Assembly: GCA_041674205.1 (NCBI GenBank)
Contig: JBAYWF010000002.1
Span: forward strand, 46,940 to 110,939
DNA length: 64,000 nt
Direction of reading: 5' to 3'
Source: Parcubacteria group bacterium
GTDB lineage: Bacteria > Patescibacteriota > Minisyncoccia > Moranbacterales > UBA2206
The position numbers were made by a program, and so were the translations under genes. The notes beneath the pieces were generated by a model. The model worked only from the letters and a program-made list of their open reading frames with translations. It was not told the DNA's origin and made no database searches. Below, in pieces: positions 1,808 to 63,505 of this stretch (its first letter is position 1; every line of letters starts with the position of its first letter).

Positions 1808-3277
1808 TTATTTTATCTTGTTTTTTAACATTTCCATGACGATTCCCGGATTAGCCTTGCCTTTCGAGGCGGCCATCACCTGTCCCATCAGGAATTGGAG
1901 CGCGTTCTGTTTGCCAGCTTTGAAATCGTCCACCGATTTCTGGTTTTTGGCCAACACCCCATCGATTATGTTTTCAAGTTCGGAAGCGTCATCCATCTGC
2001 GCCAGATTTTTTTCCTCGATGATCTGCGACGGATCGCCGCCAGTCGCGTACATCTCTTCCAAAACGACCTGTCCGGCGCTGGAATTTATCTTGCCATCCG
2101 CCAAAAAGCCGACGAGTTCCGCATAATTTTCCGCCGTTATCTTCACGTCTTTGATAGTTTGGGAATTTTTCATCAGATGTTTCTGCAATTCACTGACCAT
2201 ATAATTCGCGGCTAATTTGACCAGCTTATTTTCTTCAGAACCGATTTCCCCGCTCTGCTTTTTCTCTTTCAATTCGGAAACCACATGCTCGAAATATTCC
2301 GCCAAATCCTTGTCGCCCGTAATCACGTTCACATTTTCCAAAGATAAATTATATTCATCTACAAATCTCCTGGATTTAGCGTCTGGCAATTCAGGCAGAT
2401 GCCGGCGCAAATCCGCTACGTATTCTTCCGTAAACTTCATCGGCGGAATGTCCGGTTCGGGGAAATAGCGGTAATCATGGGCGGACTCTTTTTTTCTCTG
2501 CGCTACCGTGACGCCGCGCGCCTCGTCCCAGCCCCGGGTTTCCTGTGATACCTTCTCGCCTTTTTCCAGAATTTCCGTCTGGCGCAAGATTTCATAATCG
2601 ACCGCGCGCTCAACCACCCGGAAAGAATTCAGGTTTTTAATTTCCGATTTGGTCCCGCTCAGCTTCTCCTCATCCTCCTTATGTAAAGAAATGTTGACCT
2701 CGCAACGCATATGGCCTTTCTCCATATCCGCTTCCGAAATTTCCAGATAACGGAAAATCTGCTGCAATTTCTGGCAGAACAGGCGTGCTTCCTTGCCATT
2801 CTCAATGTCCGGTTCCGTCACCAGTTCCATCAGAGGCACCCCAGCCCGATTGAAATCCACCAAAGAATATTCAACGCCTTTCGGATGCACCAGCTTTCCC
2901 GTGTCCTCTTCCATATGGATCCGGGTTATCCCGACGGACTTCCCGTCGATTTCAACGCGGCCCTGCTCGCACAGGGGCTGGTCATATTGCGAAATCTGGT
3001 AGCCCTTGGGGATGTCCGGATAGAAATAGTTCTTACGGTCGAATTTGGAATTTTCCGCGATCTGACAATTCAGTGCCAAGCCAGCCATTTGCACGAATCT
3101 GATCGCTTGTTCGTTGGCTACCGGCAAAGTCCCGGGTTGCGCCGTGCAAACCGGACAAATATTAACGTTCGGTTCCGTTTCCATACCTAAACCGTTCTTG
3201 CAGCCGCAAAACATCTTCGATTTCGTTTTCAGTTCGACATGGATTTCCATACCGATGACGGGAATATATTTTGTCAT
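1808..3277 (-). CDS. gatB: Asp/Glu-tRNA(Asn/Gln) amidotransferase subunit B
   Basis: N-term MTKYIPVIGMEIHVELKTKSKMFCGC, typical GatB. Confidence 0.9.
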   Translation of the reverse strand: MTKYIPVIGMEIHVELKTKSKMFCGCKNGLGMETEPNVNICPVCTAQPGTLPVANEQAIRFVQMAGLALNCQIAENSKFDRKNYFYPDIPKGYQISQYDQPLCEQGRVEIDGKSVGITRIHMEEDTGKLVHPKGVEYSLVDFNRAGVPLMELVTEPDIENGKEARLFCQKLQQIFRYLEISEADMEKGHMRCEVNISLHKEDEEKLSGTKSEIKNLNSFRVVERAVDYEILRQTEILEKGEKVSQETRGWDEARGVTVAQRKKESAHDYRYFPEPDIPPMKFTEEYVADLRRHLPELPDAKSRRFVDEYNLSLENVNVITGDKDLAEYFEHVVSELKEKKQSGEIGSEENKLVKLAANYMVSELQKHLMKNSQTIKDVKITAENYAELVGFLADGKINSSAGQVVLEEMYATGGDPSQIIEEKNLAQMDDASELENIIDGVLAKNQKSVDDFKAGKQNALQFLMGQVMAASKGKANPGIVMEMLKNKIK

Positions 3278-3340
3278 AAAATCTAGATTACTGGATTATA
3301 ATAAGCCTGTGTTTAAAAAAATAGTGTGTGATTTTTATTT

Positions 3341-3410
3341 TTATACTCAAATTTTCAATTCACAATTTTAAATTTTCAAACAATTTTTAATTTAAAATTT
3401 CAAAAAATCA
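3341..3410. repeat. AT-rich AATTTTAAATT / AATTTTCAA repeat tract (gatB-dut intergenic)
   Basis: caattttaaattttcaaacaatttttaatttaaaatttcaaaaaa. Confidence 0.5.
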
Positions 3411-3423
3411 GATGCTCAAATAT

Positions 3424-3846
3424 TTAAACTCCGGTGCTTCCGAAACCGCCGTTTCCTCTTTCCGTTTCGTCCAATCCGCCCACTTCGATAACTTCCGGAT
3501 TTTCCACTTTCTGGATAAGCATCTGTGCGATCTTATCCCCCTTGCCTATCTTATATGTTTCTTGCGATAAATTAACGAGGCCTATCTTAACTTCGCCGCG
3601 ATATCCGCTATCGATGACGCCACCCAATACTTTTATCCCGCTCTTGATGGCGATGCCGCTCTTGTCCCAAATCAAGCCGACATATCCGTCCGGAATTTGC
3701 ATCGCGATTCCGGTCCGGCAAGCCGACCTTTCCATTGGCCGCAACTCCAAATCTTCCAGAGAGAAAAAGTCCATACCCGCATCGCCCGCAATGGCATATT
3801 GGGGAATTTTCGCGTCGGTTTCCAATTTTTTTATCCGTATCTTCAT
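3424..3846 (-). CDS. dut: dUTP diphosphatase
   Basis: 140 aa, dUTPase motifs (AGMDF, GVIDSGYRGE). Confidence 0.9.
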   Translation of the reverse strand: MKIRIKKLETDAKIPQYAIAGDAGMDFFSLEDLELRPMERSACRTGIAMQIPDGYVGLIWDKSGIAIKSGIKVLGGVIDSGYRGEVKIGLVNLSQETYKIGKGDKIAQMLIQKVENPEVIEVGGLDETERGNGGFGSTGV

Positions 3847-7900: not shown

Positions 7901-7924
7901 ATCTCTAAATTTGTAAATTATGGG

Positions 7925-8902
7925 CTATACCGGAGTTGGAATCTTAAACCAAGGCTTTGGTTCGTAGTCTTCAAGCACGAAATCCTCCTTGCGGAAATCC
8001 TGGAGCCTTGTCACTTTCCTATCCAGTCTAAGAGTCACGGTCGGGAAAGGCTTCGGTTCAATGGCTAAAATCTTATCCACTGATTCAGCTTGGACGTCAT
8101 AATAATGGGGATTGGATAGAAAATGAGTATATTTGGTAAACTTGTAACCCAGCAGATGCGCCACCATCAAACCAAGAGCTGACCATTCGATCAGGTTGAA
8201 TTGCAAGCCCACCGGGACATCGGCCGATCGCTGGGTGTGTGTCATTTCCAGTTCTTTCTGCTCATCAAAAAGCACGAAATGGATGAAATTGCCATGGCAG
8301 GGAGCGACGACGACTTTGCGCTTGAAACCCTGCTCTTCATCTCCCATCGATAGAGGCGGATTCCAGGTAGTCAGGACATGGGTCCTCAAAAATGGCGCTT
8401 TTTCCATCTGCCGCTGGACGGCGCTGACTTGATCGAATTCCCCTTTTGCGGATTGGAAACGTCCCAAGGATGCCCCATAGGATCCATCGCCCAAATCGCC
8501 TTCAGGTAACCCAAATATCGCACACTTTTCTTTTGTAACCCAATCCTTCCAAAAAACCTCCGGACAGCCATATTCCTTCAGGCCGCTCAGCGTACTTTGC
8601 CCATTTAAAAACGCCACCAATTCGCCTATTGATCCATAAAATGACTTGCTCAAATCACGCTCCGTCAAAACGGGAAAACCGTTGTTCATTTCAAATTGCA
8701 ACATAGCACCTGTTATTTCTTTTGAATTCTGATGCCCGGAATTAGCATTCTCACTAAGCCTGGCATGGATAGGCACTTTGTCTTTTCCTGTTGTTTTAAT
8801 TTTTTTAAGCAATTCTTGATATTGAAAATCAGGAACCCGCTCGCCAAATGGAAGATAATCGATGCCTCCTTCTATTTTATTTTTAACCTCTTTATTTGTC
8901 AT
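7925..8902 (-). CDS. thyA: thymidylate synthase ThyA family, divergent, N-extended
   Basis: TTWNP, catalytic VVAPCHGNF, RSAD, GLQFN (uracil-specifying Asn retained); aligns with E. coli ThyA over the core. Confidence 0.75.
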   Translation of the reverse strand: MTNKEVKNKIEGGIDYLPFGERVPDFQYQELLKKIKTTGKDKVPIHARLSENANSGHQNSKEITGAMLQFEMNNGFPVLTERDLSKSFYGSIGELVAFLNGQSTLSGLKEYGCPEVFWKDWVTKEKCAIFGLPEGDLGDGSYGASLGRFQSAKGEFDQVSAVQRQMEKAPFLRTHVLTTWNPPLSMGDEEQGFKRKVVVAPCHGNFIHFVLFDEQKELEMTHTQRSADVPVGLQFNLIEWSALGLMVAHLLGYKFTKYTHFLSNPHYYDVQAESVDKILAIEPKPFPTVTLRLDRKVTRLQDFRKEDFVLEDYEPKPWFKIPTPV

Positions 8903-9655: not shown

Positions 9656-11068
9656 TCATAAAAAATCGATCGGCATAGCATCCCCGCTGAATTCTTTTTT
9701 GTCCAACACCTTTTTATTTTCAACGTCCAAAAGCAAAAAAACCGACTTCCATTCCCGTTCTCCACCCGCTTGGCGATGCGAATTGCCAAAGATGGCCAGA
9801 TAGCGTCCGTCCAACCAGAAGATATCAGACCAATCATCATAACCTTTAGGCAAGGCACCCACTTCCATCCTTTCCTTGGTCGCTACATCGATAGCTAGAA
9901 GTTCAGCGGAATCTTTTACCGTTTCGTTTATGAAAAATACCAGCCTGCCGCCCGGTGAAAAAAACGGAAGTGATTTCATGTCTTCTTTGTCCAATGCGTA
10001 AAATCCGCCTCCATCGATATTCGAAACAGCCAGAACGCTGCTAGGCGCTTCCGTAAATTCATTTTTGAAAGTGAAAACGGCTTTTTTGCCATCCGCAGAA
10101 ATTGCCGCTTCCTGAAAACCGCCTTTCTGCCTTCCGATTTTCCCTCCCAAATCAAATGGAACATCTGATTTTTCCGCCGCTACGATAAAAATTCCTGATC
10201 GGCCTCCATCTCCAGGCTCCGGATCGATAATCAGATTAGCATTGGGCGCCCAGCGCGCTTCCATCCCAGCCAGCGCGCTGCTTTCTGATCCTCCAATCGG
10301 AGCGGGATCACCCGCTAATTTGGTATCGATAACATATAGCCGGTGGGATCCGGCGGAAACTTCCACGAAGCTCAAAAACCTGCTGTCAAAAGACCATTGG
10401 GGTTTCACCAAATCAAAAACATAAGTATTTTTTTTCAGGACCTGTTCCGAAGCGAATCCTGGATCAGCGACCAGCGCTTCTTTTTTTCCAACCAGCAATC
10501 TATTCTCCCTGCTTGCCAAATCATACGAATATAATCCGTCGATTGCCACATATGCCAGCTTTTTTTTATCAGGCGATAAAACGACACTTGCGACTGGCAC
10601 ATCTGTCCCGTCAGACAATCCATCCAAACTCCGGTCAAATTCCAAAACTACTTCCTGATAATCCTTTTTGATATCTTCCCGACTGACAATCACATGATTG
10701 CCTTGTCCGGAAACCACCAGAAGCGCCCCATGGTAGGCGTTACCTTCTTCGGCAAAGCCCTCCAAATCCCAAATATTGCCATCCGCAAACTGAGCCGCCG
10801 CTTGATTCTCTTGACCAGCCATCACTTTTATGCCGCCGACTTTCCCAAAGTCATTCCCTTGCCATTGATACACGCCTGCGGTCGCTATGGCAACCGAGAT
10901 GGCTAAAGCTGCCACGACGGCTAATTCCCTGCGAACCTTGCGCCGATTATAACGGAAACTCAGCCCTTGCCTGATCTCGATTCTCTTATGTTTGATCATA
11001 TCCCATTCGGCGACCACTTTCTCCTCGATTGCCTGGCCAAACGAATGCGCATCAAATTTTTTTTCCAT
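9656..11068 (-). CDS. membrane-anchored TolB-like beta-propeller (PD40/WD40-like) protein
   Basis: short cytoplasmic N-term, one TM (LAVVAALAISVAIATAGVYQW), repeated propeller-like segments. Confidence 0.5.
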   Translation of the reverse strand: MEKKFDAHSFGQAIEEKVVAEWDMIKHKRIEIRQGLSFRYNRRKVRRELAVVAALAISVAIATAGVYQWQGNDFGKVGGIKVMAGQENQAAAQFADGNIWDLEGFAEEGNAYHGALLVVSGQGNHVIVSREDIKKDYQEVVLEFDRSLDGLSDGTDVPVASVVLSPDKKKLAYVAIDGLYSYDLASRENRLLVGKKEALVADPGFASEQVLKKNTYVFDLVKPQWSFDSRFLSFVEVSAGSHRLYVIDTKLAGDPAPIGGSESSALAGMEARWAPNANLIIDPEPGDGGRSGIFIVAAEKSDVPFDLGGKIGRQKGGFQEAAISADGKKAVFTFKNEFTEAPSSVLAVSNIDGGGFYALDKEDMKSLPFFSPGGRLVFFINETVKDSAELLAIDVATKERMEVGALPKGYDDWSDIFWLDGRYLAIFGNSHRQAGGEREWKSVFLLLDVENKKVLDKKEFSGDAMPIDFL

Positions 11069-46484: not shown

Positions 46485-47057
46485 TTACATTCCGGATTTT
46501 CTTCTGAAAATCTTGTTCGCCCATCCGGCGTTCGGCGCTTCAGCGGACTTCTTTATTTTGCCGCCTTCTTTCACCTTCAGTTCCTTGCCCACACCTTCGG
46601 CCTTGGCGACTTCTTCGGATTCTTTCTTGCTGGCAAGCATTTCCTTTTCCGCTTTTTTCTTAGCATCCAATCGCGTCTTTTTTTCTTTTTCCAATTGTTC
46701 CTTGGTTTTCCTATTCTTGCCTTCAACCCGTTCTTCCACGACTATTTCCATCTGGGTCGATCTTTTCCTGATCGGTGTCGCCCGTCCATACGCTTTCGGC
46801 ATCCAACGCTTCAAAGTGATGCCTTCTTTAACGACCACATCCGAAACATACATATTATCCCTATCGATACCGAAATTATTTTCCCCGTTGGCGATAGCGC
46901 TTTCCAACAATTTGATGATGAACGGACTGGTCTTTTTGACTGTCGCATCCAATTGATCCAAAGCGTCCTTCACATCCATCCCGATAATAAGATCGGCCAC
47001 CAATTTGACTTTGCGGTTCGGCATCCTTAAATTGTTTAATTTTGCTGATACTTTCAT
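46485..47057 (-). CDS. rplV: 50S ribosomal protein L22 with K/E-rich C-terminal extension
   Basis: L22 core plus ~70 aa charged tail. Confidence 0.9.
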   Translation of the reverse strand: MKVSAKLNNLRMPNRKVKLVADLIIGMDVKDALDQLDATVKKTSPFIIKLLESAIANGENNFGIDRDNMYVSDVVVKEGITLKRWMPKAYGRATPIRKRSTQMEIVVEERVEGKNRKTKEQLEKEKKTRLDAKKKAEKEMLASKKESEEVAKAEGVGKELKVKEGGKIKKSAEAPNAGWANKIFRRKSGM

Positions 47058-54240: not shown

Positions 54241-54492
54241 TTACTGCAAATATTGTTTCACTTCTTCCAAGGCGCCAGTAAAAGCCGGGAAATGGTCTTT
54301 AAAAATCAAAAGGCGGTTCACGACTTTTTCACCGGTCGGTTTTTTATAGGACTCGGCGACAGTCAGATAATTACTGCCGTTGCTCGCCTTCTTCACATCG
54401 AAGAAATAGGTTTTGCCTCCCGCCTTCACCATCTGCGCGAAGACTTTGTCCTGGACCGGCGCGCCTTGCGGCGCATTTTGTGATTGTTGCAT
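54241..54492 (-). CDS. PUR-alpha-like (DUF3276-type) nucleic-acid-binding protein
   Basis: GGKTYFFDVKKASNGSNYLTVAES. Confidence 0.5.
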   Translation of the reverse strand: MQQSQNAPQGAPVQDKVFAQMVKAGGKTYFFDVKKASNGSNYLTVAESYKKPTGEKVVNRLLIFKDHFPAFTGALEEVKQYLQ

Positions 54493-54647
54493 TTTTGTTT
54501 TCCGTACCCGCGCCTCAAGCGCGGGATATTAAATTATTAGTCGGAAGGCTGCAGCGCTTCCTGATGATATTTTATCACTGCCGTTATCACTGTCAAGTTT
54601 TCGGCTGTGGATAACTTATTGCAGCGGTCCGACCCCTCCAAAAAACT

Positions 54648-55609: not shown

Positions 55610-56623
55610 TCAATTCTTGGCCAGCAAGTTGGTGATGAGCGCGATCATGGTTTCTTTTTCTTTCGGATGGCTTTCCGCCACGAGCAAGGCCAGCGCCGTC
55701 AAAGCGTTGTCATTGATTTTCTTTTCTCCATTGGCGCCGTAGAGATAATTATTGCGGTCCAAAAAATAGATAAACAGGAAAGCTCCCATACGTTTGTTGC
55801 CATCGGAAAACGGATGATCCTTGATTACTAGGTACAGCAAGTGCGCCGCCTTGCTTTCCAAATCAGCATACAATTCCTTGCCGTCGAAAGTTTGGTATAG
55901 GTTTTTGATGACCGATTCGAACGCGCCACCCCTTTCATTGCCGAAAATATCACCCGCTTCTTTCTTAGCCAGCAATTCCCTTTTGACTTCCGTCACGATT
56001 TTTTGGCAATCTTCATACCGCAAAACGAATTTGGCCTTGCCTGCGCGCGCCTTCTTCAAACTGCTCTTATCATATTGCTCCAAGAGGGTCAAAGTCTTGG
56101 CGTAGTCCGCCAACAGATCCATAATTTCAACCTCTTGCCCTTTCAACGTTTTCGCGTGGACTTTTTCCCGCAAGAAGGAAATGGTTTTTTGCAGTTTTTC
56201 AAAATTTTCCTTTTCCTGCAAAAGCCTTTTCTGATTGATGGTGTAGCCTTTTAACAAATGCTCCCGCAATACATTGGTCGCCCAGATGCGGAATTGGGTG
56301 GCGCGAGTCGAATTGACCCGATAACCGATAGAAATAACAGCATCTAGATTATAAAATTGGATTTTATAGACTTTACCATCAGAGGCAGTATGTTCCAAAA
56401 TGGAACTAACTGAACTCTTCTTCAGCTCGCCGGATTTAAAGACATTTTGCAAATGTTTTGTAATTGCAGGTCTCTGCGTACCAAAAAGCATTGCAATTTG
56501 ATCCTGCGTAAGCCAAACTGTTTCTTTCTCGAATTTAATCTCCAATTCAACCTCCCCTGCCTTGGATTTGTAAATTATGACTTCACCTTCTTGTGGAACC
56601 TTTTTTAAGTTTTGTTTTACCAT
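55610..56623 (-). CDS. RhuM-like N-terminal domain fused to Fic (AMPylase-type) domain
   Basis: C-terminal HPFSDGNKRMG matches Fic motif HPFx[DE]GNGR; N-terminal KIQFYNLDAVISIGYRVNS RhuM-like. Confidence 0.7.
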   Translation of the reverse strand: MVKQNLKKVPQEGEVIIYKSKAGEVELEIKFEKETVWLTQDQIAMLFGTQRPAITKHLQNVFKSGELKKSSVSSILEHTASDGKVYKIQFYNLDAVISIGYRVNSTRATQFRIWATNVLREHLLKGYTINQKRLLQEKENFEKLQKTISFLREKVHAKTLKGQEVEIMDLLADYAKTLTLLEQYDKSSLKKARAGKAKFVLRYEDCQKIVTEVKRELLAKKEAGDIFGNERGGAFESVIKNLYQTFDGKELYADLESKAAHLLYLVIKDHPFSDGNKRMGAFLFIYFLDRNNYLYGANGEKKINDNALTALALLVAESHPKEKETMIALITNLLAKN

Positions 56624-56715
56624 ATTTTTTAACTTATTTGATTATAGTGATATAGTATCATTATAATCGAATCCGTCAACCCTTCACGACCTTGTTTATT
56701 GCAACTATCAAAAAA

Positions 56716-56747
56716 CGCATGGACATTCTCACATTCTCGAGAATGTG
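56716..56747. promoter_or_regulatory. 32-bp near-perfect palindrome upstream of Fic gene (GAATGT half-sites, centred on CTCGAG)
   Basis: ACATTCTCACATTCTCGAGAATGTGAGAATAT. Confidence 0.6.
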
Positions 56748-56756
56748 AGAATATGT

Positions 56757-57380
56757 TCATTGCCCATCATCATCCAGGAAATTCCCGAGCTCAGAAATGT
56801 TCAAAAAATCTATGCCGGCGGCCTGGGCCGCGCCGCTGTCGGCCCGGCTATCGCCGATAAGCAGGTATCGCGATTTCGGAAAGCTCCCGTCAAAAATCAA
56901 GGAAAAACCGTCCGCCCGCGGTTTGATATACCGGACATCGTTGCGCGTAACGATCTTTGCGAAAAATTTCGCCCAACCCAGCTCCTCCAAAATCAGCTGG
57001 ATCGTCCGCCGGTCATTGGATGTCCATAAATATAATTCGGCATACTTCCGGGATAATTCGAGCAGGGGCGCCGCGAGCGGCGACAAGTCGTAGCCGTAAA
57101 AAAAATCTTTTTCAATCCCGAAATTCATTTCATTCATCCTCTCGCTGGCCGCATCGCCACCTTTTTCGATGCAAAGATTTATCTTCTCGGAATAATTCAA
57201 ATCAGGGCTCTCGCTGAAATCCAACCCGAACTCGGAAAAAATGCCATCCAGCTCCTCGCACCAAGGCTTCCAATCGACCAACAACGTGCAGAGCGTCTTG
57301 TCGAAATCGAAAATAATATGCTTGATGTCTTTTTCTTGGATGTAGTTTTCGAACTGTTCTTTTTTCATGTTTTTTTGCAA
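56757..57380 (-). CDS. HAD-superfamily hydrolase
   Basis: IIFDFDKTL (DxDxT motif). Confidence 0.7.
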   Translation of the reverse strand: MQKNMKKEQFENYIQEKDIKHIIFDFDKTLCTLLVDWKPWCEELDGIFSEFGLDFSESPDLNYSEKINLCIEKGGDAASERMNEMNFGIEKDFFYGYDLSPLAAPLLELSRKYAELYLWTSNDRRTIQLILEELGWAKFFAKIVTRNDVRYIKPRADGFSLIFDGSFPKSRYLLIGDSRADSGAAQAAGIDFLNISELGNFLDDDGQ

Positions 57381-59406: not shown

Positions 59407-59421
59407 TTGAATTATTTTGTT

Positions 59422-59446
59422 GGCTTTCTGCAGAATGTGGGAATGT
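59422..59446. promoter_or_regulatory. motif A copy 1 (upstream of S51 peptidase gene)
   Basis: GGCTTTCTGCAGAATGTGGGAATGT. Confidence 0.6.
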
Positions 59447-59458
59447 TGTTTTTTATAT

Positions 59459-60037
59459 CTATTCCCTTCCGATCTTGTCCAACAATCCATCAAAGGGGAA
59501 ATTTTCAGTATAGATAATCGGGTTTTCAGCTTTAGTCGGACGTTCGAAATTAATAGCATCTTCTGTCAGCCAGCCTGAGGGAACATCATGCCTGTCGCGA
59601 GTTATTTTGTTGCGCGCCTTCCTTTCCTTCAACACCTCAACGGGAATATCCAGATATACTAAAGAAAAATCGACACCCATATCTTTCGCTACGGCACGCA
59701 GATCTTCACGCTGGCGGAAAAGCAAGCAGTTGTCGTCAAAAACCACCGAATTGCCGATGAGCAATTGGTTCTTGGCTCCCTGCACGGCAATCGGCCAGAG
59801 ATTGTTCCACAGCGAATCATCATCGTCGTCCGGCGTGCTTTCAAGGGCTAATATTTTTTCAATGGCAAAATAGATGCGATCGCGCCCGACTATTTCCGCC
59901 CCAAAAGACTCGGACAATTTCTTGGAAAGTGTCGTCTTTCCGGAAAAAGCTTCCCCGCAAAGAATAATGAGACGCTGTTTTTCCTTTTTCATATCATTTT
60001 TAATGTTAATTGATTGTGGATTATCCCGCACTGACAT
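59459..60037 (-). CDS. P-loop kinase (AAA_33 / zeta-toxin-like fold)
   Basis: LIILCGEAFSGKTTLSKKL Walker A. Confidence 0.55.
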   Translation of the reverse strand: MSVRDNPQSINIKNDMKKEKQRLIILCGEAFSGKTTLSKKLSESFGAEIVGRDRIYFAIEKILALESTPDDDDDSLWNNLWPIAVQGAKNQLLIGNSVVFDDNCLLFRQREDLRAVAKDMGVDFSLVYLDIPVEVLKERKARNKITRDRHDVPSGWLTEDAINFERPTKAENPIIYTENFPFDGLLDKIGRE

Positions 60038-60067
60038 TCTGTCTTTCTGCAGAATGTGAGAATGTCG
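60031..60067. promoter_or_regulatory. motif A copy 2 (upstream of P-loop kinase gene)
   Basis: CTGACATTCTGTCTTTCTGCAGAATGTGAGAATGTCG. Confidence 0.6.
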
Positions 60068-60072
60068 TTTTA

Positions 60073-60372
60073 CTAGAATGTTCTTATGAATTTCAGGAAG
60101 AGCTTGCCATAGGGCGAAAGTGAATGCCGGATTCCCCTACCTTGGCGGGTCTTATTGATTAGTCCGGATTGCACCAGTTTTTTAGTATGTTCGGAAATGG
60201 TTTTGATATTGCCTCGCATGATCGCGCAGATGCTATCCAGCGTGATTCCGTCATGTTCAGCCACTATAAACAAAATCTCTATCCTTCGGTGGTTAGCTAC
60301 GCCTTTCAAGTGCCGTTCCATCTGCCGGGGAGTTTTTTGCTTCTTTTCAATTTTTCTCTTTTTGGCTAACAT
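60073..60372 (-). CDS. ArsR/SmtB-family winged-helix transcriptional regulator
   Basis: HRRIEILFIVAEHDGITLDSICAIMRGNIKTISEHTKKLVQSGLI HTH. Confidence 0.7.
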   Translation of the reverse strand: MLAKKRKIEKKQKTPRQMERHLKGVANHRRIEILFIVAEHDGITLDSICAIMRGNIKTISEHTKKLVQSGLINKTRQGRGIRHSLSPYGKLFLKFIRTF

Positions 60373-60445
60373 AATTTAATTTTATAACCGCCAACACACT
60401 ATCATATTTCAATAATATCACAATCCTACCATCCCACAACATCCT

Positions 60446-60472
60446 GGCTTTCTGCAGAATGTCGGAATGTCG
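60446..60472. promoter_or_regulatory. motif A copy 3 (upstream of ArsR gene itself)
   Basis: GGCTTTCTGCAGAATGTCGGAATGTCG. Confidence 0.6.
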
Positions 60473-60627
60473 CGGTGGCATATGTGTGATATGTGCGGGC
60501 TATTTCAGATTGAAGGCTTGGTGCGGGATGGATTGCTCGAGAGCGGCAAGGTCGGATTGGGTGGATTTTTGGCGAGCCTGCAAGCGGGCGATTTTTTCGC
60601 GATTTACATCCAGCCGCATGATGATCC

Positions 60628-61095
60628 CTAATTCAAAATCCAAATCGAATAATTAAGATAGCCGGCGAAGCTGACCCAAAGAATATATGGCGCCAGAAGC
60701 CAGGCGGCTGTCTTGGAAATTTTGGCGAAGGCGATGATTGTGGCAAGGATGGCCAGCCAAAGAAAAGTCATCTCTAAAAGCGCGCCGCCTGGGGAATGGA
60801 GGCCGAAAAAGACAATCGACCAAAGCGCGTTCAAAACCATCTGGATCCCGAAAGTCCAAAAAGCCAAGCGTTTGTTTTTTCCGCCTTCGTCCGTCCAGAC
60901 AAGATAGAGCGCGTAGCCCATCAAAAGAAACAGCGCCGTCCAGACCGGACCGAATACCCACGCCGGCGGATTGAGAGCGGGCTTCACCAGCACCGGATAC
61001 CAATTTTTCACCGAACCGATCGTAAAAAAACTCCCCAATCCTCCCGCCAATTGCGGGATAAGAAGTGAAATGATGAGTTTGTATATTTTTTTCAT
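60628..61095 (-). CDS. tspO: TspO/MBR (translocator protein) family membrane protein
   Basis: 5 TM, Trp-rich, WYPVLVKPALNPPAWVFGPVWT. Confidence 0.75.
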   Translation of the reverse strand: MKKIYKLIISLLIPQLAGGLGSFFTIGSVKNWYPVLVKPALNPPAWVFGPVWTALFLLMGYALYLVWTDEGGKNKRLAFWTFGIQMVLNALWSIVFFGLHSPGGALLEMTFLWLAILATIIAFAKISKTAAWLLAPYILWVSFAGYLNYSIWILN

Positions 61096-61206: not shown

Positions 61207-61244
61207 GCTGACATTCTGGCTTTCTGCAGAATGTGGGAATATCG
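61207..61244. promoter_or_regulatory. motif A copy 4 (upstream of tspO)
   Basis: GCTGACATTCTGGCTTTCTGCAGAATGTGGGAATATCG. Confidence 0.6.
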
Positions 61245-61919: not shown

Positions 61920-62714
61920 TTATATAACTGTCATTTTTTTATTTTCTTCACCTGATCTGATATACCGAGAAATTTGAAAAGATATTTCATTAACATCATC
62001 CCCACTAAATATTTCCTTTTCATTCGCTAGATATTTCGGTAAAGCTTTTGGCTCTAAAACCCACACGTCATTATTTTTCTTACTTGCCTTAATGAACCAT
62101 CCTGGATACACAACCACCGCCTTAACTGAAACATCTCTGCCTGTTATTTTGAGAATAAGTTTTTGAAGCCAATCCCGTTGCGCCTTTGCTTGGATAATTG
62201 GTTTTTCTGATATAGTCCCTCCGTTCATTCGAATACCTTTACTATCGTAATCAATAATTGCCTGTCCCTTCCCAGGCTTGCTCCATGTTTTAGTTTCAAT
62301 CGTAAACGCTCCAGCTGGCCCGATGATAATGTGATCTAAGTTAAATCCATCGCCAATCAGATCATGAAAAACAAAATATCCCTTGGTTCTCAGCGATTCT
62401 AAAAATTGACCAACTTCTCTTTCACCATCCCTGCCCAATTTTCTATTACTTATTTCCTTTTTTGCATACATATATTTTGCAATAGCATATCCAGTGACAA
62501 CGATTGCAACGAACGTCCATACTTCTGGCAAGGGTGGCTTGTCGTATGTTTTTTCATACCATTGAAGGAGCGCTACGACAATGGTAAATATAGCCAACAA
62601 AGCTGGGGAAATAATGCTATCATAAGCAATATCTCGAATTTCTTCGGTTAGTGATTGACCTGGATAACGCAAGGGCTGAGCTTTTAGTGGCGACTTCTTT
62701 TTTATATTGGCCAT
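61920..62714 (-). CDS. NERD (nuclease-related) domain protein with N-terminal TM helices
   Basis: GRDGEREVGQFL...YFVFHDL...DHIIIGPAGAFTIETK. Confidence 0.6.
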   Translation of the reverse strand: MANIKKKSPLKAQPLRYPGQSLTEEIRDIAYDSIISPALLAIFTIVVALLQWYEKTYDKPPLPEVWTFVAIVVTGYAIAKYMYAKKEISNRKLGRDGEREVGQFLESLRTKGYFVFHDLIGDGFNLDHIIIGPAGAFTIETKTWSKPGKGQAIIDYDSKGIRMNGGTISEKPIIQAKAQRDWLQKLILKITGRDVSVKAVVVYPGWFIKASKKNNDVWVLEPKALPKYLANEKEIFSGDDVNEISFQISRYIRSGEENKKMTVI

Positions 62715-62724
62715 TTTTTTATTT

Positions 62725-62754
62725 TAATTACTGAATTAATTCATGAATTATGGT
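62725..62754. promoter_or_regulatory. motif C copy (immediately upstream of NERD gene)
   Basis: TTAATTACTGAATTAATTCATGAATTATGG; overlapping palindromes TGAATTAATTCA and ATTCATGAAT. Confidence 0.55.
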
Positions 62755-62816: not shown

Positions 62817-63455
62817 CTATTTCAATTTGATGTAAATTTCAGGATCACCCTTGATCAGATTTTTGATTTCTTCTATCCTATTTTGCAAGAAATAATCGAA
62901 CTCTTCCGGAATGACGTTCGGAAAATCATAATCATGTGAAACGACCAGGACAGTTTCAGCATCCTCTTTCAGTTTTCTCACTAAGGGCTTCAAATAGCTG
63001 AACGTGTCTATTATGACATCTCTCGCCTCATCGATATCATAGCCATCAGTCTCGCTGAATCTTTTTGCGATTTCAGCCAAGTTTTCATCATTGATCAATG
63101 CATACATCTGAATAAAAGAATCCTTAGTTGGTATATATTCATCAATTTGCTCCAATTTGAAATAGCCGACCAATGTACCTAATTGACTCATATATTGCTC
63201 ATCTCCCATAGCTGAATTTATCAAGGCTGATACCGAACCCATTTTTAAATAAATATTTTCCAGCCCAGCTAAAAAATCATCACCCCCATATCGGTAGGCG
63301 TCTTTTAATTCTGAAAAATGCTCAAAAAATTTATTTTCTTCCGATTCACCAGCCTTCTCCACGGAATCGGCTTTCTTCACAAAATCTAAAAACTCAGCCA
63401 AAGTTTTTTCAGCTTCATCCTTGTTGAACGCAAAAATTTCTGTTATAACACTCAT
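62817..63455 (-). CDS. acidic hypothetical protein
   Basis: 212 aa, D/E-rich, no motif recognised. Confidence 0.4.
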   Translation of the reverse strand: MSVITEIFAFNKDEAEKTLAEFLDFVKKADSVEKAGESEENKFFEHFSELKDAYRYGGDDFLAGLENIYLKMGSVSALINSAMGDEQYMSQLGTLVGYFKLEQIDEYIPTKDSFIQMYALINDENLAEIAKRFSETDGYDIDEARDVIIDTFSYLKPLVRKLKEDAETVLVVSHDYDFPNVIPEEFDYFLQNRIEEIKNLIKGDPEIYIKLK

Positions 63456-63462
63456 TTTTTTA

Positions 63463-63505
63463 GGTAAGTAATTAATTACTGAATTAATTCATGAATTAAA
63501 ATTAT
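63463..63505. promoter_or_regulatory. motif B tail + motif C copy (upstream of acidic 212-aa gene)
   Basis: AGGTAAGTAATTAATTACTGAATTAATTCATGAATTAAAATTA. Confidence 0.55.

Follow-up and report, generated by a model that had tools for sequence, protein, structure and literature searches.

A RhuM–Doc fusion gene and a 34-bp operator-like palindrome in a Patescibacteria accessory gene cluster

The window considered in this report is a stretch of 64,000 nucleotides from a Parcubacteria group bacterium (contig JBAYWF010000002.1, forward-strand positions 46,940 to 110,939), and its subjects are a minus-strand gene that encodes a 337-residue fusion of a RhuM-type and a Doc-type domain, hereafter RhuM–Doc, and a palindromic element of 34 bp that lies upstream of this gene. 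An earlier sequence-only reading of the window had joined the two, describing a Fic-type protein-modifying enzyme whose promoter region carries the palindrome and which is thereby tied to a regulon linked to an ArsR-type regulator. Comparison loci from other genomes are designated here by L numbers and homologous proteins by P numbers.

The RhuM–Doc gene, its predicted chemistry and its promoter

The gene, its domains and its promoter occupy the following positions of the window.

55610–56623, minus strand: RhuM–Doc fusion gene, 337 residues (open reading frame; Pfam; identical named protein P0001; PADLOC family PDC-S23).
56204–56590, minus strand: N-terminal winged-helix domain, RhuM/Ant/Bro-N-like, about residues 12–140 (PDC-S05, PHROG and AlphaFold2).
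55613–56026, minus strand: C-terminal Doc-type Fido domain, about residues 200–337 (Pfam Fic, TIGR01550, PHROG and a PDB profile).
55790–55816, minus strand: catalytic motif HPFSDGNKR, the Doc variant with Lys277, residues 270–278 (sequence).
56652–56679, minus strand: sigma-70-like promoter, TTGACG, a 16-nt spacer and TACTAT, with TG before the −10 (promoter prediction).
56647–56660, minus strand: small palindrome TGATACTATATCAC centred on the −10, ATAGTGATATAATATCACTAT in relatives (alignment A2).

The fusion of a RhuM module with a member of the Fic superfamily, as the sequence-only reading had it, is borne out by searches with hidden Markov models (HMMs), in which both Pfam models score above their cut-offs: Virulence_RhuM (PF13310) at 1.9e-23, with 83.5 bits against 33.7, and Fic (PF02661) at 4.8e-12, with 47 bits, the gathering cut-off being 24, over residues 212–288. 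The proposed resemblance of the N-terminus to RhuM is upheld by the first of these matches, which covers only positions 3–112 of the 252 in the profile, and, by this coverage, it is the N-terminal module of RhuM, not its full length, that has a counterpart here. In addition, models of the PADLOC family PDC-S05 span residues 11–150, the PHROG matches are to the anti-repressor Ant at the N-terminus (1.4e-5) and to a Doc-like toxin (8.2e-15), and the Bro-N match to the N-terminal domain is weak (0.018). When a profile of the C-terminal domain was compared with the PDB, the best match was 9vzc, of the death-on-curing family (1e-4), with P1 Doc matched weakly, while a search with the single sequence returned marginal matches only (E about 0.1). 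AlphaFold2 (AF2), run on shallow input alignments (at least 58% identity), gave a full-length model with a mean predicted local distance difference test score (pLDDT) of 60, confident only at residues 40–120 (pLDDT 80–90), which form a helix-turn-helix and a beta hairpin; for residues 186–337, six helices were predicted at low confidence (mean pLDDT 54). Foldseek searches of the PDB with the models of the full protein and of the Doc domain gave nothing significant, the full-protein model having weak similarity to winged-helix proteins. The best explanation of these data is a layout in which an N-terminal winged-helix domain of the RhuM/Ant/Bro-N-like kind is followed by a long helical linker and a C-terminal Doc-type Fido domain. 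Part of the winged helix, at about residues 45–90 (window nucleotides about 56354–56491), is mosaic across a protein alignment (A1): in P0005, P0009, P0012, P0039 and P0087 it is swapped for unrelated sequence, the remainder being over 70% identical, which suggests recombinational swapping of a putative recognition module.

Proteins of this architecture are already named and abundant. A deposited protein with 100% identity is called “MAG: virulence protein RhuM/Fic/DOC family protein” and assigned to a Parcubacteria group bacterium (NCBI; MAG, metagenome-assembled genome), and the search for homologues gave at least 8000 scored candidates, all at E ≤ 1e-5, with about 65% identity across candidate phyla among the 120 matches listed. 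When the representatives of 50%-identity clusters were searched exhaustively, 25,764 matched at E ≤ 1e-3, and 1,258 did so at E ≤ 1e-30; in the majority of the best 150, co-linearity extends over residues of about 12–335. The PADLOC family PDC-S23, a candidate single-gene phage defence, is matched over its full length (1.3e-124, residues 12–336 against profile positions 4–325 of 327). The RhuM–DOC fusion was described by Anantharaman et al. in 2013, where it takes the position of a toxin in restriction-modification (R-M) and PrrC neighbourhoods (PMC3710099), and several of 80 metagenomic homologues lie directly after hsdS/hsdM-like genes, as judged by eye from the C-terminal peptides. No paper with phage data for PDC-S23 was found; for PDC-S05, the RhuM-domain family, a gene conferred protection on E. 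coli against T7, T5 and T4 and lowered the plating efficiency of T7 and T5 about 1000-fold (10.1101/2024.09.26.614923). All these matches mark the gene as an ordinary member of a very common family that already has a name, and the fusion is not new, the family being a probable protein-kinase toxin and a candidate for phage defence. The same architecture and the full-length profile match make the protein no different from the RhuM–DOC family (PDC-S23; PMC3710099); the setting differs, as the usual one is a type I R-M or PrrC locus, whereas here it is a Patescibacteria accessory cluster beside an ArsR-type operator.

The motif HPFSDGNKRMG had been taken for a canonical Fic active site. It belongs to the Fic superfamily, fitting the nine-residue Fic/Fido pattern HxFx(D/E)(A/G)N(G/K)R with its catalytic His, but position 8 is Lys277 and not Gly, and MGA follows with no trailing Arg (HPFSDGNKRMGA), which makes it the Doc variant: HPFSDGNKR fits the Doc consensus HxFx(D/N)(A/G)NKR, and HPFSDGNKR-MGA does not match the pattern of the AMPylating Fic proteins (classes I–III), HxFx(D/E)GNGRxxR. 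Canonical Fic enzymes carry HxFx(D/E)GNGR and Doc proteins HxFx(D/N)(A/G)NKR, and the Lys of Doc forces an inverted orientation of ATP, so that a phosphate is transferred instead of AMP (PMC4177925). Among 35 homologues, H270, F272, D274, G275, N276, K277 and R278 are invariant, and KDHPFxDGNKR is kept throughout. The inhibitory helix motif (S/T)xxxE(G/N), which had been suggested as a means of typing the Fic domain, was not found in the RhuM–Doc protein by a regular-expression search, and chance matches occur in 5 of the 35 homologues, at non-equivalent positions. An activity of the AMPylation or phosphocholination type, as formerly proposed, does not agree with a Lys277 that is invariant in the 35 homologues and with Doc models that score best. 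Instead, because position 8 of the motif is occupied by Lys in place of Gly, as it is in P1 Doc, the predicted chemistry is most likely that of a Doc-type kinase rather than that of an AMPylase.

An enzyme of this kind would bind ATP in the inverted orientation and would phosphorylate an essential cellular protein, by analogy a translation GTPase such as EF-Tu; from this predicted phosphorylation of an essential protein follows the proposed role of a growth-arresting toxin or an abortive-infection effector, which agrees with the listing as PDC-S23 and with the frequent place of these genes inside type I R-M loci. The likeness to Doc of the P1 Phd–Doc system consists of the motif HxFx(D/N)(A/G)NKR with Lys at position 8, of Doc HMMs as the best matches, and of the six helices, predicted at low confidence. 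Unlike P1 Doc, the window domain is fused to roughly 190 residues, comprising the winged-helix domain and the linker, and the gene has no upstream Phd-type antitoxin gene. No such antitoxin adjoins it, the upstream gene encoding a 207-residue HAD hydrolase, and the only small open reading frame upstream (56629–56760) is spurious, reading through the palindrome.

The gene has a promoter of its own. The upstream region was aligned with those of L001 (85% identity), L101 (76%) and L094 and L100 (71%), and in these four loci an arrangement TAGACA-17-TATAAT is conserved, its −10 embedded in the ATAGTGATATAATATCACTAT palindrome; the invariant part of alignment A2 is TGATA..ATATCAC.ATAA. At the DNA level, the window and L001 cease to be homologous about 40 bp upstream of the ATG, far short of the 34-bp element. 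The alignment shows the promoter and the −10 palindrome to be inherited along with the RhuM–Doc gene. Apart from one site with a single mismatch, the −10 palindrome has no second copy in the window; this relative, TGATATTTTATCAC at 54565–54578, is intergenic and lies upstream of an 83-residue gene (54241–54492). Autoregulation through this palindrome by the winged helix of the protein itself was considered and is weakened by L094 and L100, which keep the palindrome despite replaced residues at about 45–90. The upstream module of other RhuM–Doc genes also has GAGTTATCCACAGG, which contains the perfect DnaA-box consensus TTATCCACA (L001 4912–4925; L094 about 10765–10778; L100 about 7921–7934; L101 about 7920–7933), and the window copy is without it.

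The 34-bp element and the 99-residue regulator

Upstream of RhuM–Doc, the window holds five copies of the element and several further genes, as follows.

56722–56755, strandless: type B, symmetric 34-bp element GACATTCTCACATTCTC|GAGAATGTGAGAATATG with four ACATTCT half-sites, the palindrome noted earlier.
56757–57380, minus strand: HAD hydrolase gene directly upstream of RhuM–Doc (Pfam; 72% identical to the HAD protein of L100).
59414–59447, minus strand: type A element with a degenerate distal arm, upstream of an S51-peptidase-like gene (36.7 bits).
60033–60066, minus strand: type A element 6 nt after the regulator stop codon, upstream of an AAA_33 kinase gene (53.7 bits).
60073–60372, minus strand: gene for a 99-residue ArsR/MarR-type winged-helix regulator, which is proposed to bind the element (Pfam).
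60438–60471, minus strand: type A element 65 nt upstream of the regulator start, a putative autoregulatory site (53.2 bits).
60628–61095, minus strand: TspO gene, recurrent in the regulator-linked cluster (Pfam, 2.4e-51).
61210–61243, minus strand: type A element followed, after 7 nt, by an extended −10 TGATATAAT, upstream of TspO (53.3 bits).

The sequence-only reading gave the element as a palindrome of 32 bp with perfect arms. The palindrome is real; its arms are perfect over 28 bp only (14 + 14, 56725–56752), the quoted 32-mer (56723–56754) contains one mismatched pair, in the 34-bp frame 30 of the 34 positions are self-complementary, and the end coordinate then given, 56747, clips it. It is made up of four 7-bp half-sites ACATTCT with 8-bp spacing, in the order forward, forward, reverse, reverse, and the remark that its half-site is that of the other motif in the window (motif A) was right, ACATTCT being used in the other four elements as well. 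Scanned with a weight matrix, the 64-kb window yields exactly five sites that reach 36 bits or more (56722, 59414, 60033, 60438 and 61210), with all others below 12 bits and a best score of 12.4 over 30 shuffles; the matrix was built from 42 elements that include these five, the scores of which are inflated for this reason. With the 14-mer half-site and up to two mismatches, there are 5 matches in the window against 0.71 expected. All five elements lie between co-directional minus-strand genes, and no Rfam family matches at any of them. A degenerate type A site inside the 3′ end of the HAD gene was dropped on account of a score under 12 bits.

When one genome per species was scanned with a 23-nt core of the element, 12 further loci came to light, from diverse Patescibacteria metagenome-assembled genomes, with near-identical 34-mers. 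Type A is asymmetric (RACATTCYSACATTCTGCAGAAAGCCAGAATGTY) and has a constant orientation relative to the downstream gene; because a −10 box, often tggTATAAT, comes 5–11 nt after many of these elements, type A would cover the −35 or the spacer of the promoter. The copy at 61210–61243, with about 60 bp of its promoter flank, is 88% identical to L009 2351–2452. Type B is symmetric (RACATTCTCAYATTCTCGAGAATRTGAGAATGTY) and is also found in L005, L011, L012 and L097, the copy in the window being 100% identical over 32 bp to L012 5046–5077; it is placed either 53–75 bp downstream of a type A element (L005, L011, L012, L097) or straight after a stop codon (the window, and L097 5654). Some copies form arrays, namely A-B-A with a 53-bp period in L005 (1268–1407) and, in L097 (4009–4991), two pairs of A followed by B, 75 bp apart, and such ordered arrays point to a cooperative or multi-dimer occupancy. 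Open reading frames that read through the element (window 56629–56760; L012 4748–5080) yield “...FSHSRECEN...” peptides, which are artefacts and carry a risk of being mis-called as genes.

The proposed binder of these elements passes the Pfam thresholds of MarR (28.2 bits against 24.6) and HTH_5 (23.2 bits against 22), its nearest solved structures are HlyU, CadC, ArsR and PagR, and it has 734 relatives; among the 120 matches listed, all the named ones are from the Patescibacteria group. Elements are present beside the regulator gene in all ten loci examined (the window and nine with a homologue) and on both sides of it in nine of them (the window, L004, L013, L094, L096, L097, L098, L099 and L100); in L009, only the downstream element is present, and the contig ends inside the regulator gene. 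The upstream element lies 23–182 nt before the start codon, and the second is at, overlaps or is a few bases from the stop codon, serving the next gene. In three loci the operators have diverged (in L098 the centre is CTTGAG, in L099 the half-sites are GTATTCT, and in L100 the element has CTCAAG/AGCATGT), and it is in exactly these three that the recognition helix KTISEHTKKL is altered (TCRL in L098, ARRL in L099 and LWRL in L100). The operators that flank the regulator in L098 and L100 are symmetric elements scoring nearer to type B than to type A.

The 99-residue ArsR-family protein encoded 3.4 kb away very probably has the 34-bp element as its operator, and this assignment is the best supported because of the co-variation of helix and operator, the autoregulatory geometry and the overlap with promoters. 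Such a protein would regulate its own gene and would repress a small and variable set of accessory genes by occupying the −35 or the spacer of their promoters. It resembles the ArsR/SmtB autorepressors (HlyU, CadC, ArsR, PagR) in its HTH_5/MarR matches, in the palindrome before its own gene and in the promoter overlap, and differs from them in having no conserved metal-binding Cys/His motif, in an operator that is unusually long (34 bp) and exists as an asymmetric promoter-linked A form and a symmetric B form, and in the second copy at or a few bases from the stop codon of the regulator. No metal- or ligand-sensing residues were recognised in the regulator, its single Cys (C49) not being conserved and CxC motifs and His clusters being absent. 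The system appears to be of a conventional kind and apparently uncharacterised, as a keyword search of the literature for a described ArsR regulon of Patescibacteria gave nothing relevant; to our knowledge, transcriptional regulation is almost unexplored in these bacteria.

Connection between the element and the RhuM–Doc gene

A single base separates the stop codon of the HAD gene from the symmetric element, which ends 98 nt before the RhuM–Doc ATG. Related gene orders are found elsewhere: operator, regulator, operator, TspO and RhuM–Doc in L094, and operator, regulator, operator, HAD, TspO and RhuM–Doc in L100, so that, together with the window, the linkage of regulator, HAD, TspO and RhuM–Doc recurs in three genomes; in L096, 4 kb separate TspO and the regulator, and another element is found at a distance of 0.6 kb. 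As a separate observation, the tuf–S10 ribosomal protein operon follows closely downstream of the regulator cluster in three genomes (L094 from 12647 on, L100 from 11051 on and L099 from 5114 on), and in L094 and L100, both of which have RhuM–Doc, this brings a gene for a Doc-type toxin, by analogy aimed at EF-Tu, to within about 1–2 kb of tuf.

From the place of the element, which is a single base past the HAD stop codon and 42 bp short of the −35, a role as a roadblock or auxiliary operator is proposed: the bound repressor would stop the read-through of the S51–HAD operon into the toxin gene, and the toxin would thereby be expressed in response to the signal that also governs the remainder of the cluster. 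The control of RhuM–Doc by the element is plausible, and is the weakest step of the whole account, according to which a standard RhuM–Doc kinase toxin with its own promoter stands beside an ArsR-type operator that acts as a roadblock. Overall, this account has our moderate confidence.

Several results count against it. The element has no overlap with the core promoter, from the −35 of which it is separated by the 42 bp just mentioned, so that the description of the gene as lying under a palindrome in its promoter region is accurate as to the upstream intergenic position and not as to the promoter; moreover, type B lacks the −10 box that follows type A. In 81 other RhuM–Doc loci (375 kb), no copy of the 34-bp element was found, and none lies directly upstream of RhuM–Doc in L094, L100, L001 and L101. 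The palindrome and the gene as a conserved unit were rejected on the count of 0 in 81, and the comparison of loci shows that the palindrome is not part of the promoter cassette inherited with the gene; the tie of a Fic-type enzyme to an ArsR-linked regulon keeps in its favour the shared motif family, the clustering in two further genomes and the symmetric elements, nearer to type B, that flank the regulator in L098 and L100. Regarding the other steps, the binding of the regulator to the element is read from co-location and co-variation, and the target and the chemistry from one residue and the precedent of P1 Doc. The best NCBIfam match, TIGR01550 (DOC_P1, 3.8e-9), at 36.8 bits falls slightly under its cut-off of 38.65, the AF2 models of the whole protein and of the Doc domain are both of low confidence, and no conserved partner or antitoxin gene was found beside RhuM–Doc, whose neighbours differ among L001, L094, L100 and L101.

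A wider and rather doubtful version would take in the whole group: an ArsR-type mini-repressor, present throughout the Patescibacteria and acting at an operator of four half-sites, would run a flexible set of accessory genes (TspO, HAD, Nudix/MazG-type genes, kinases and hydrolases, differing between genomes), and a Doc-type kinase toxin would have been captured by the mini-repressor in some lineages, with the repressor standing in for an antitoxin.

As regards the protein, a canonical Fic AMPylase or phosphocholinase under direct transcriptional repression through the promoter palindrome could appeal to the Pfam Fic match, to a weak match of the 337-residue protein to the VopS family (0.0015), to the HPFxDGN core, and to the intergenic position of the palindrome upstream of the gene. 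We consider it improbable, as the invariant Lys at position 8 and the missing trailing Arg are the signature of a Doc kinase (PMC4177925), (S/T)xxxE(G/N) is absent, Doc models are the best, and the palindrome stops 42 bp short of the −35 of the conserved promoter. The protein might also be an effector aimed at another organism, for virulence or host manipulation, and Patescibacteria are often episymbionts. BifA of Streptococcus equi subsp. zooepidemicus, for which such a role is proposed, has the same combination of RhuM at the N-terminus with Fic at the C-terminus, acts on host cells, requires its catalytic His and raises the phosphorylation of moesin (PMC6529018), so that, compared by description, it resembles the window protein also in an effect associated with target phosphorylation, which in the latter is predicted. 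However, BifA is a released virulence factor acting on mammalian cells (PMC6529018) and nothing suggests the export of the window protein; no secretion-system gene is present among the Pfam-annotated neighbours (signal peptides were not searched for), the family occurs in free-living and environmental lineages and in R-M or defence neighbourhoods, and direct phosphorylation by BifA was not shown by its authors. An effector is for these reasons very improbable.

Two other explanations concern the palindrome itself. It could act as RNA, either as a 3′ stem-loop (terminator or stabiliser) of the HAD operon, after whose stop codon it comes by a single base, as other elements also abut stop codons, or as a leader hairpin, in keeping with the frequent position of type B 53–75 bp downstream of a type A promoter. 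The minus-strand RNA does fold, with an 11-bp stem within a structure of −24.6 kcal/mol (z = −3.2), and a U6 run comes 9 nt after the hairpin; nevertheless, the minus strand fails the criteria of an intrinsic terminator (AT-rich stem, T-run 9–10 nt away) and the scan flags the plus strand only. What is conserved is the sequence, as near-identical 34-mers in unrelated contexts, and not the pairing alone; the copies upstream of −10 boxes would not be transcribed, and the element, which has no Rfam family, changes in step with the recognition helix of a protein that binds DNA. All this makes an RNA role unlikely. The elements could instead be the boundaries of mobile cassettes (recombination sites like loxP or attC) or repeats of the repetitive extragenic palindrome (REP) or miniature inverted-repeat transposable element (MITE) kind, with RhuM–Doc as an inserted cassette. 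Their size and symmetry resemble those of loxP and FRT, they stand exactly at gene boundaries, in one orientation and in many unrelated contexts, the gene beside a conserved element changes from an S51 peptidase in the window to an alpha/beta hydrolase in the close relative L009, and RhuM–Doc and its own promoter clearly travel together as one unit. Yet no integrase or recombinase adjoins the arrays, either in the window or among the loci examined, the spacing to the −10 boxes is consistent, the elements always flank and co-vary with the regulator, and the homology of RhuM–Doc ends about 40 bp upstream of the ATG and not at the element, so that we regard mobile boundaries as a poor explanation.

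Further repeats and the place of the system in Patescibacteria

Other motifs were noted along the way. Between TspO and the upstream element of the regulator, a possible open reading frame of 39 residues (MRLDVNREKIARLQARQKSTQSDLAALEQSIPHQAFNLK) is found on the minus strand at 60500–60619, and the region 60439–60580 is 71% identical to L006 327–480. In L001, another contig from the candidate phyla, four palindromes of about 34 bp, CACTCAC..CAGTACGGCCGTACTG..GTGAGTG, lie around PaaX_M-like and Ham1p-like genes (2988–3802), in a layout analogous to the arrangement of a regulator with flanking operators. Finally, an identical 27-mer, TTAATTACTGAATTAATTCATGAATTA, is located at 62725–62751 and 63472–63498, 10–17 bp before the starts of a pair of neighbouring minus-strand genes, a NERD-domain gene (61920–62714) and a gene for a 212-residue protein (62817–63455), and is a second, putative promoter/operator motif, repeated and unrelated to the 34-bp element.

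The RhuM–Doc gene itself adds nothing new, apart from the correction of its predicted chemistry from an AMPylase to a Doc-type kinase; its family, on the other hand, is among the most abundant candidate defence genes that lack a known mechanism. The conserved promoter with its −10 palindrome, kept in a group of closely related genes, suggests a regulated expression that is testable. The element and the 99-residue regulator offer a clean and conserved regulator–operator pair in Patescibacteria, in which the co-variation of helix and operator provides a ready-made specificity series. If the mini-repressor does run the accessory set proposed above, it would be a transcriptional gatekeeper for a defence or stress toxin.

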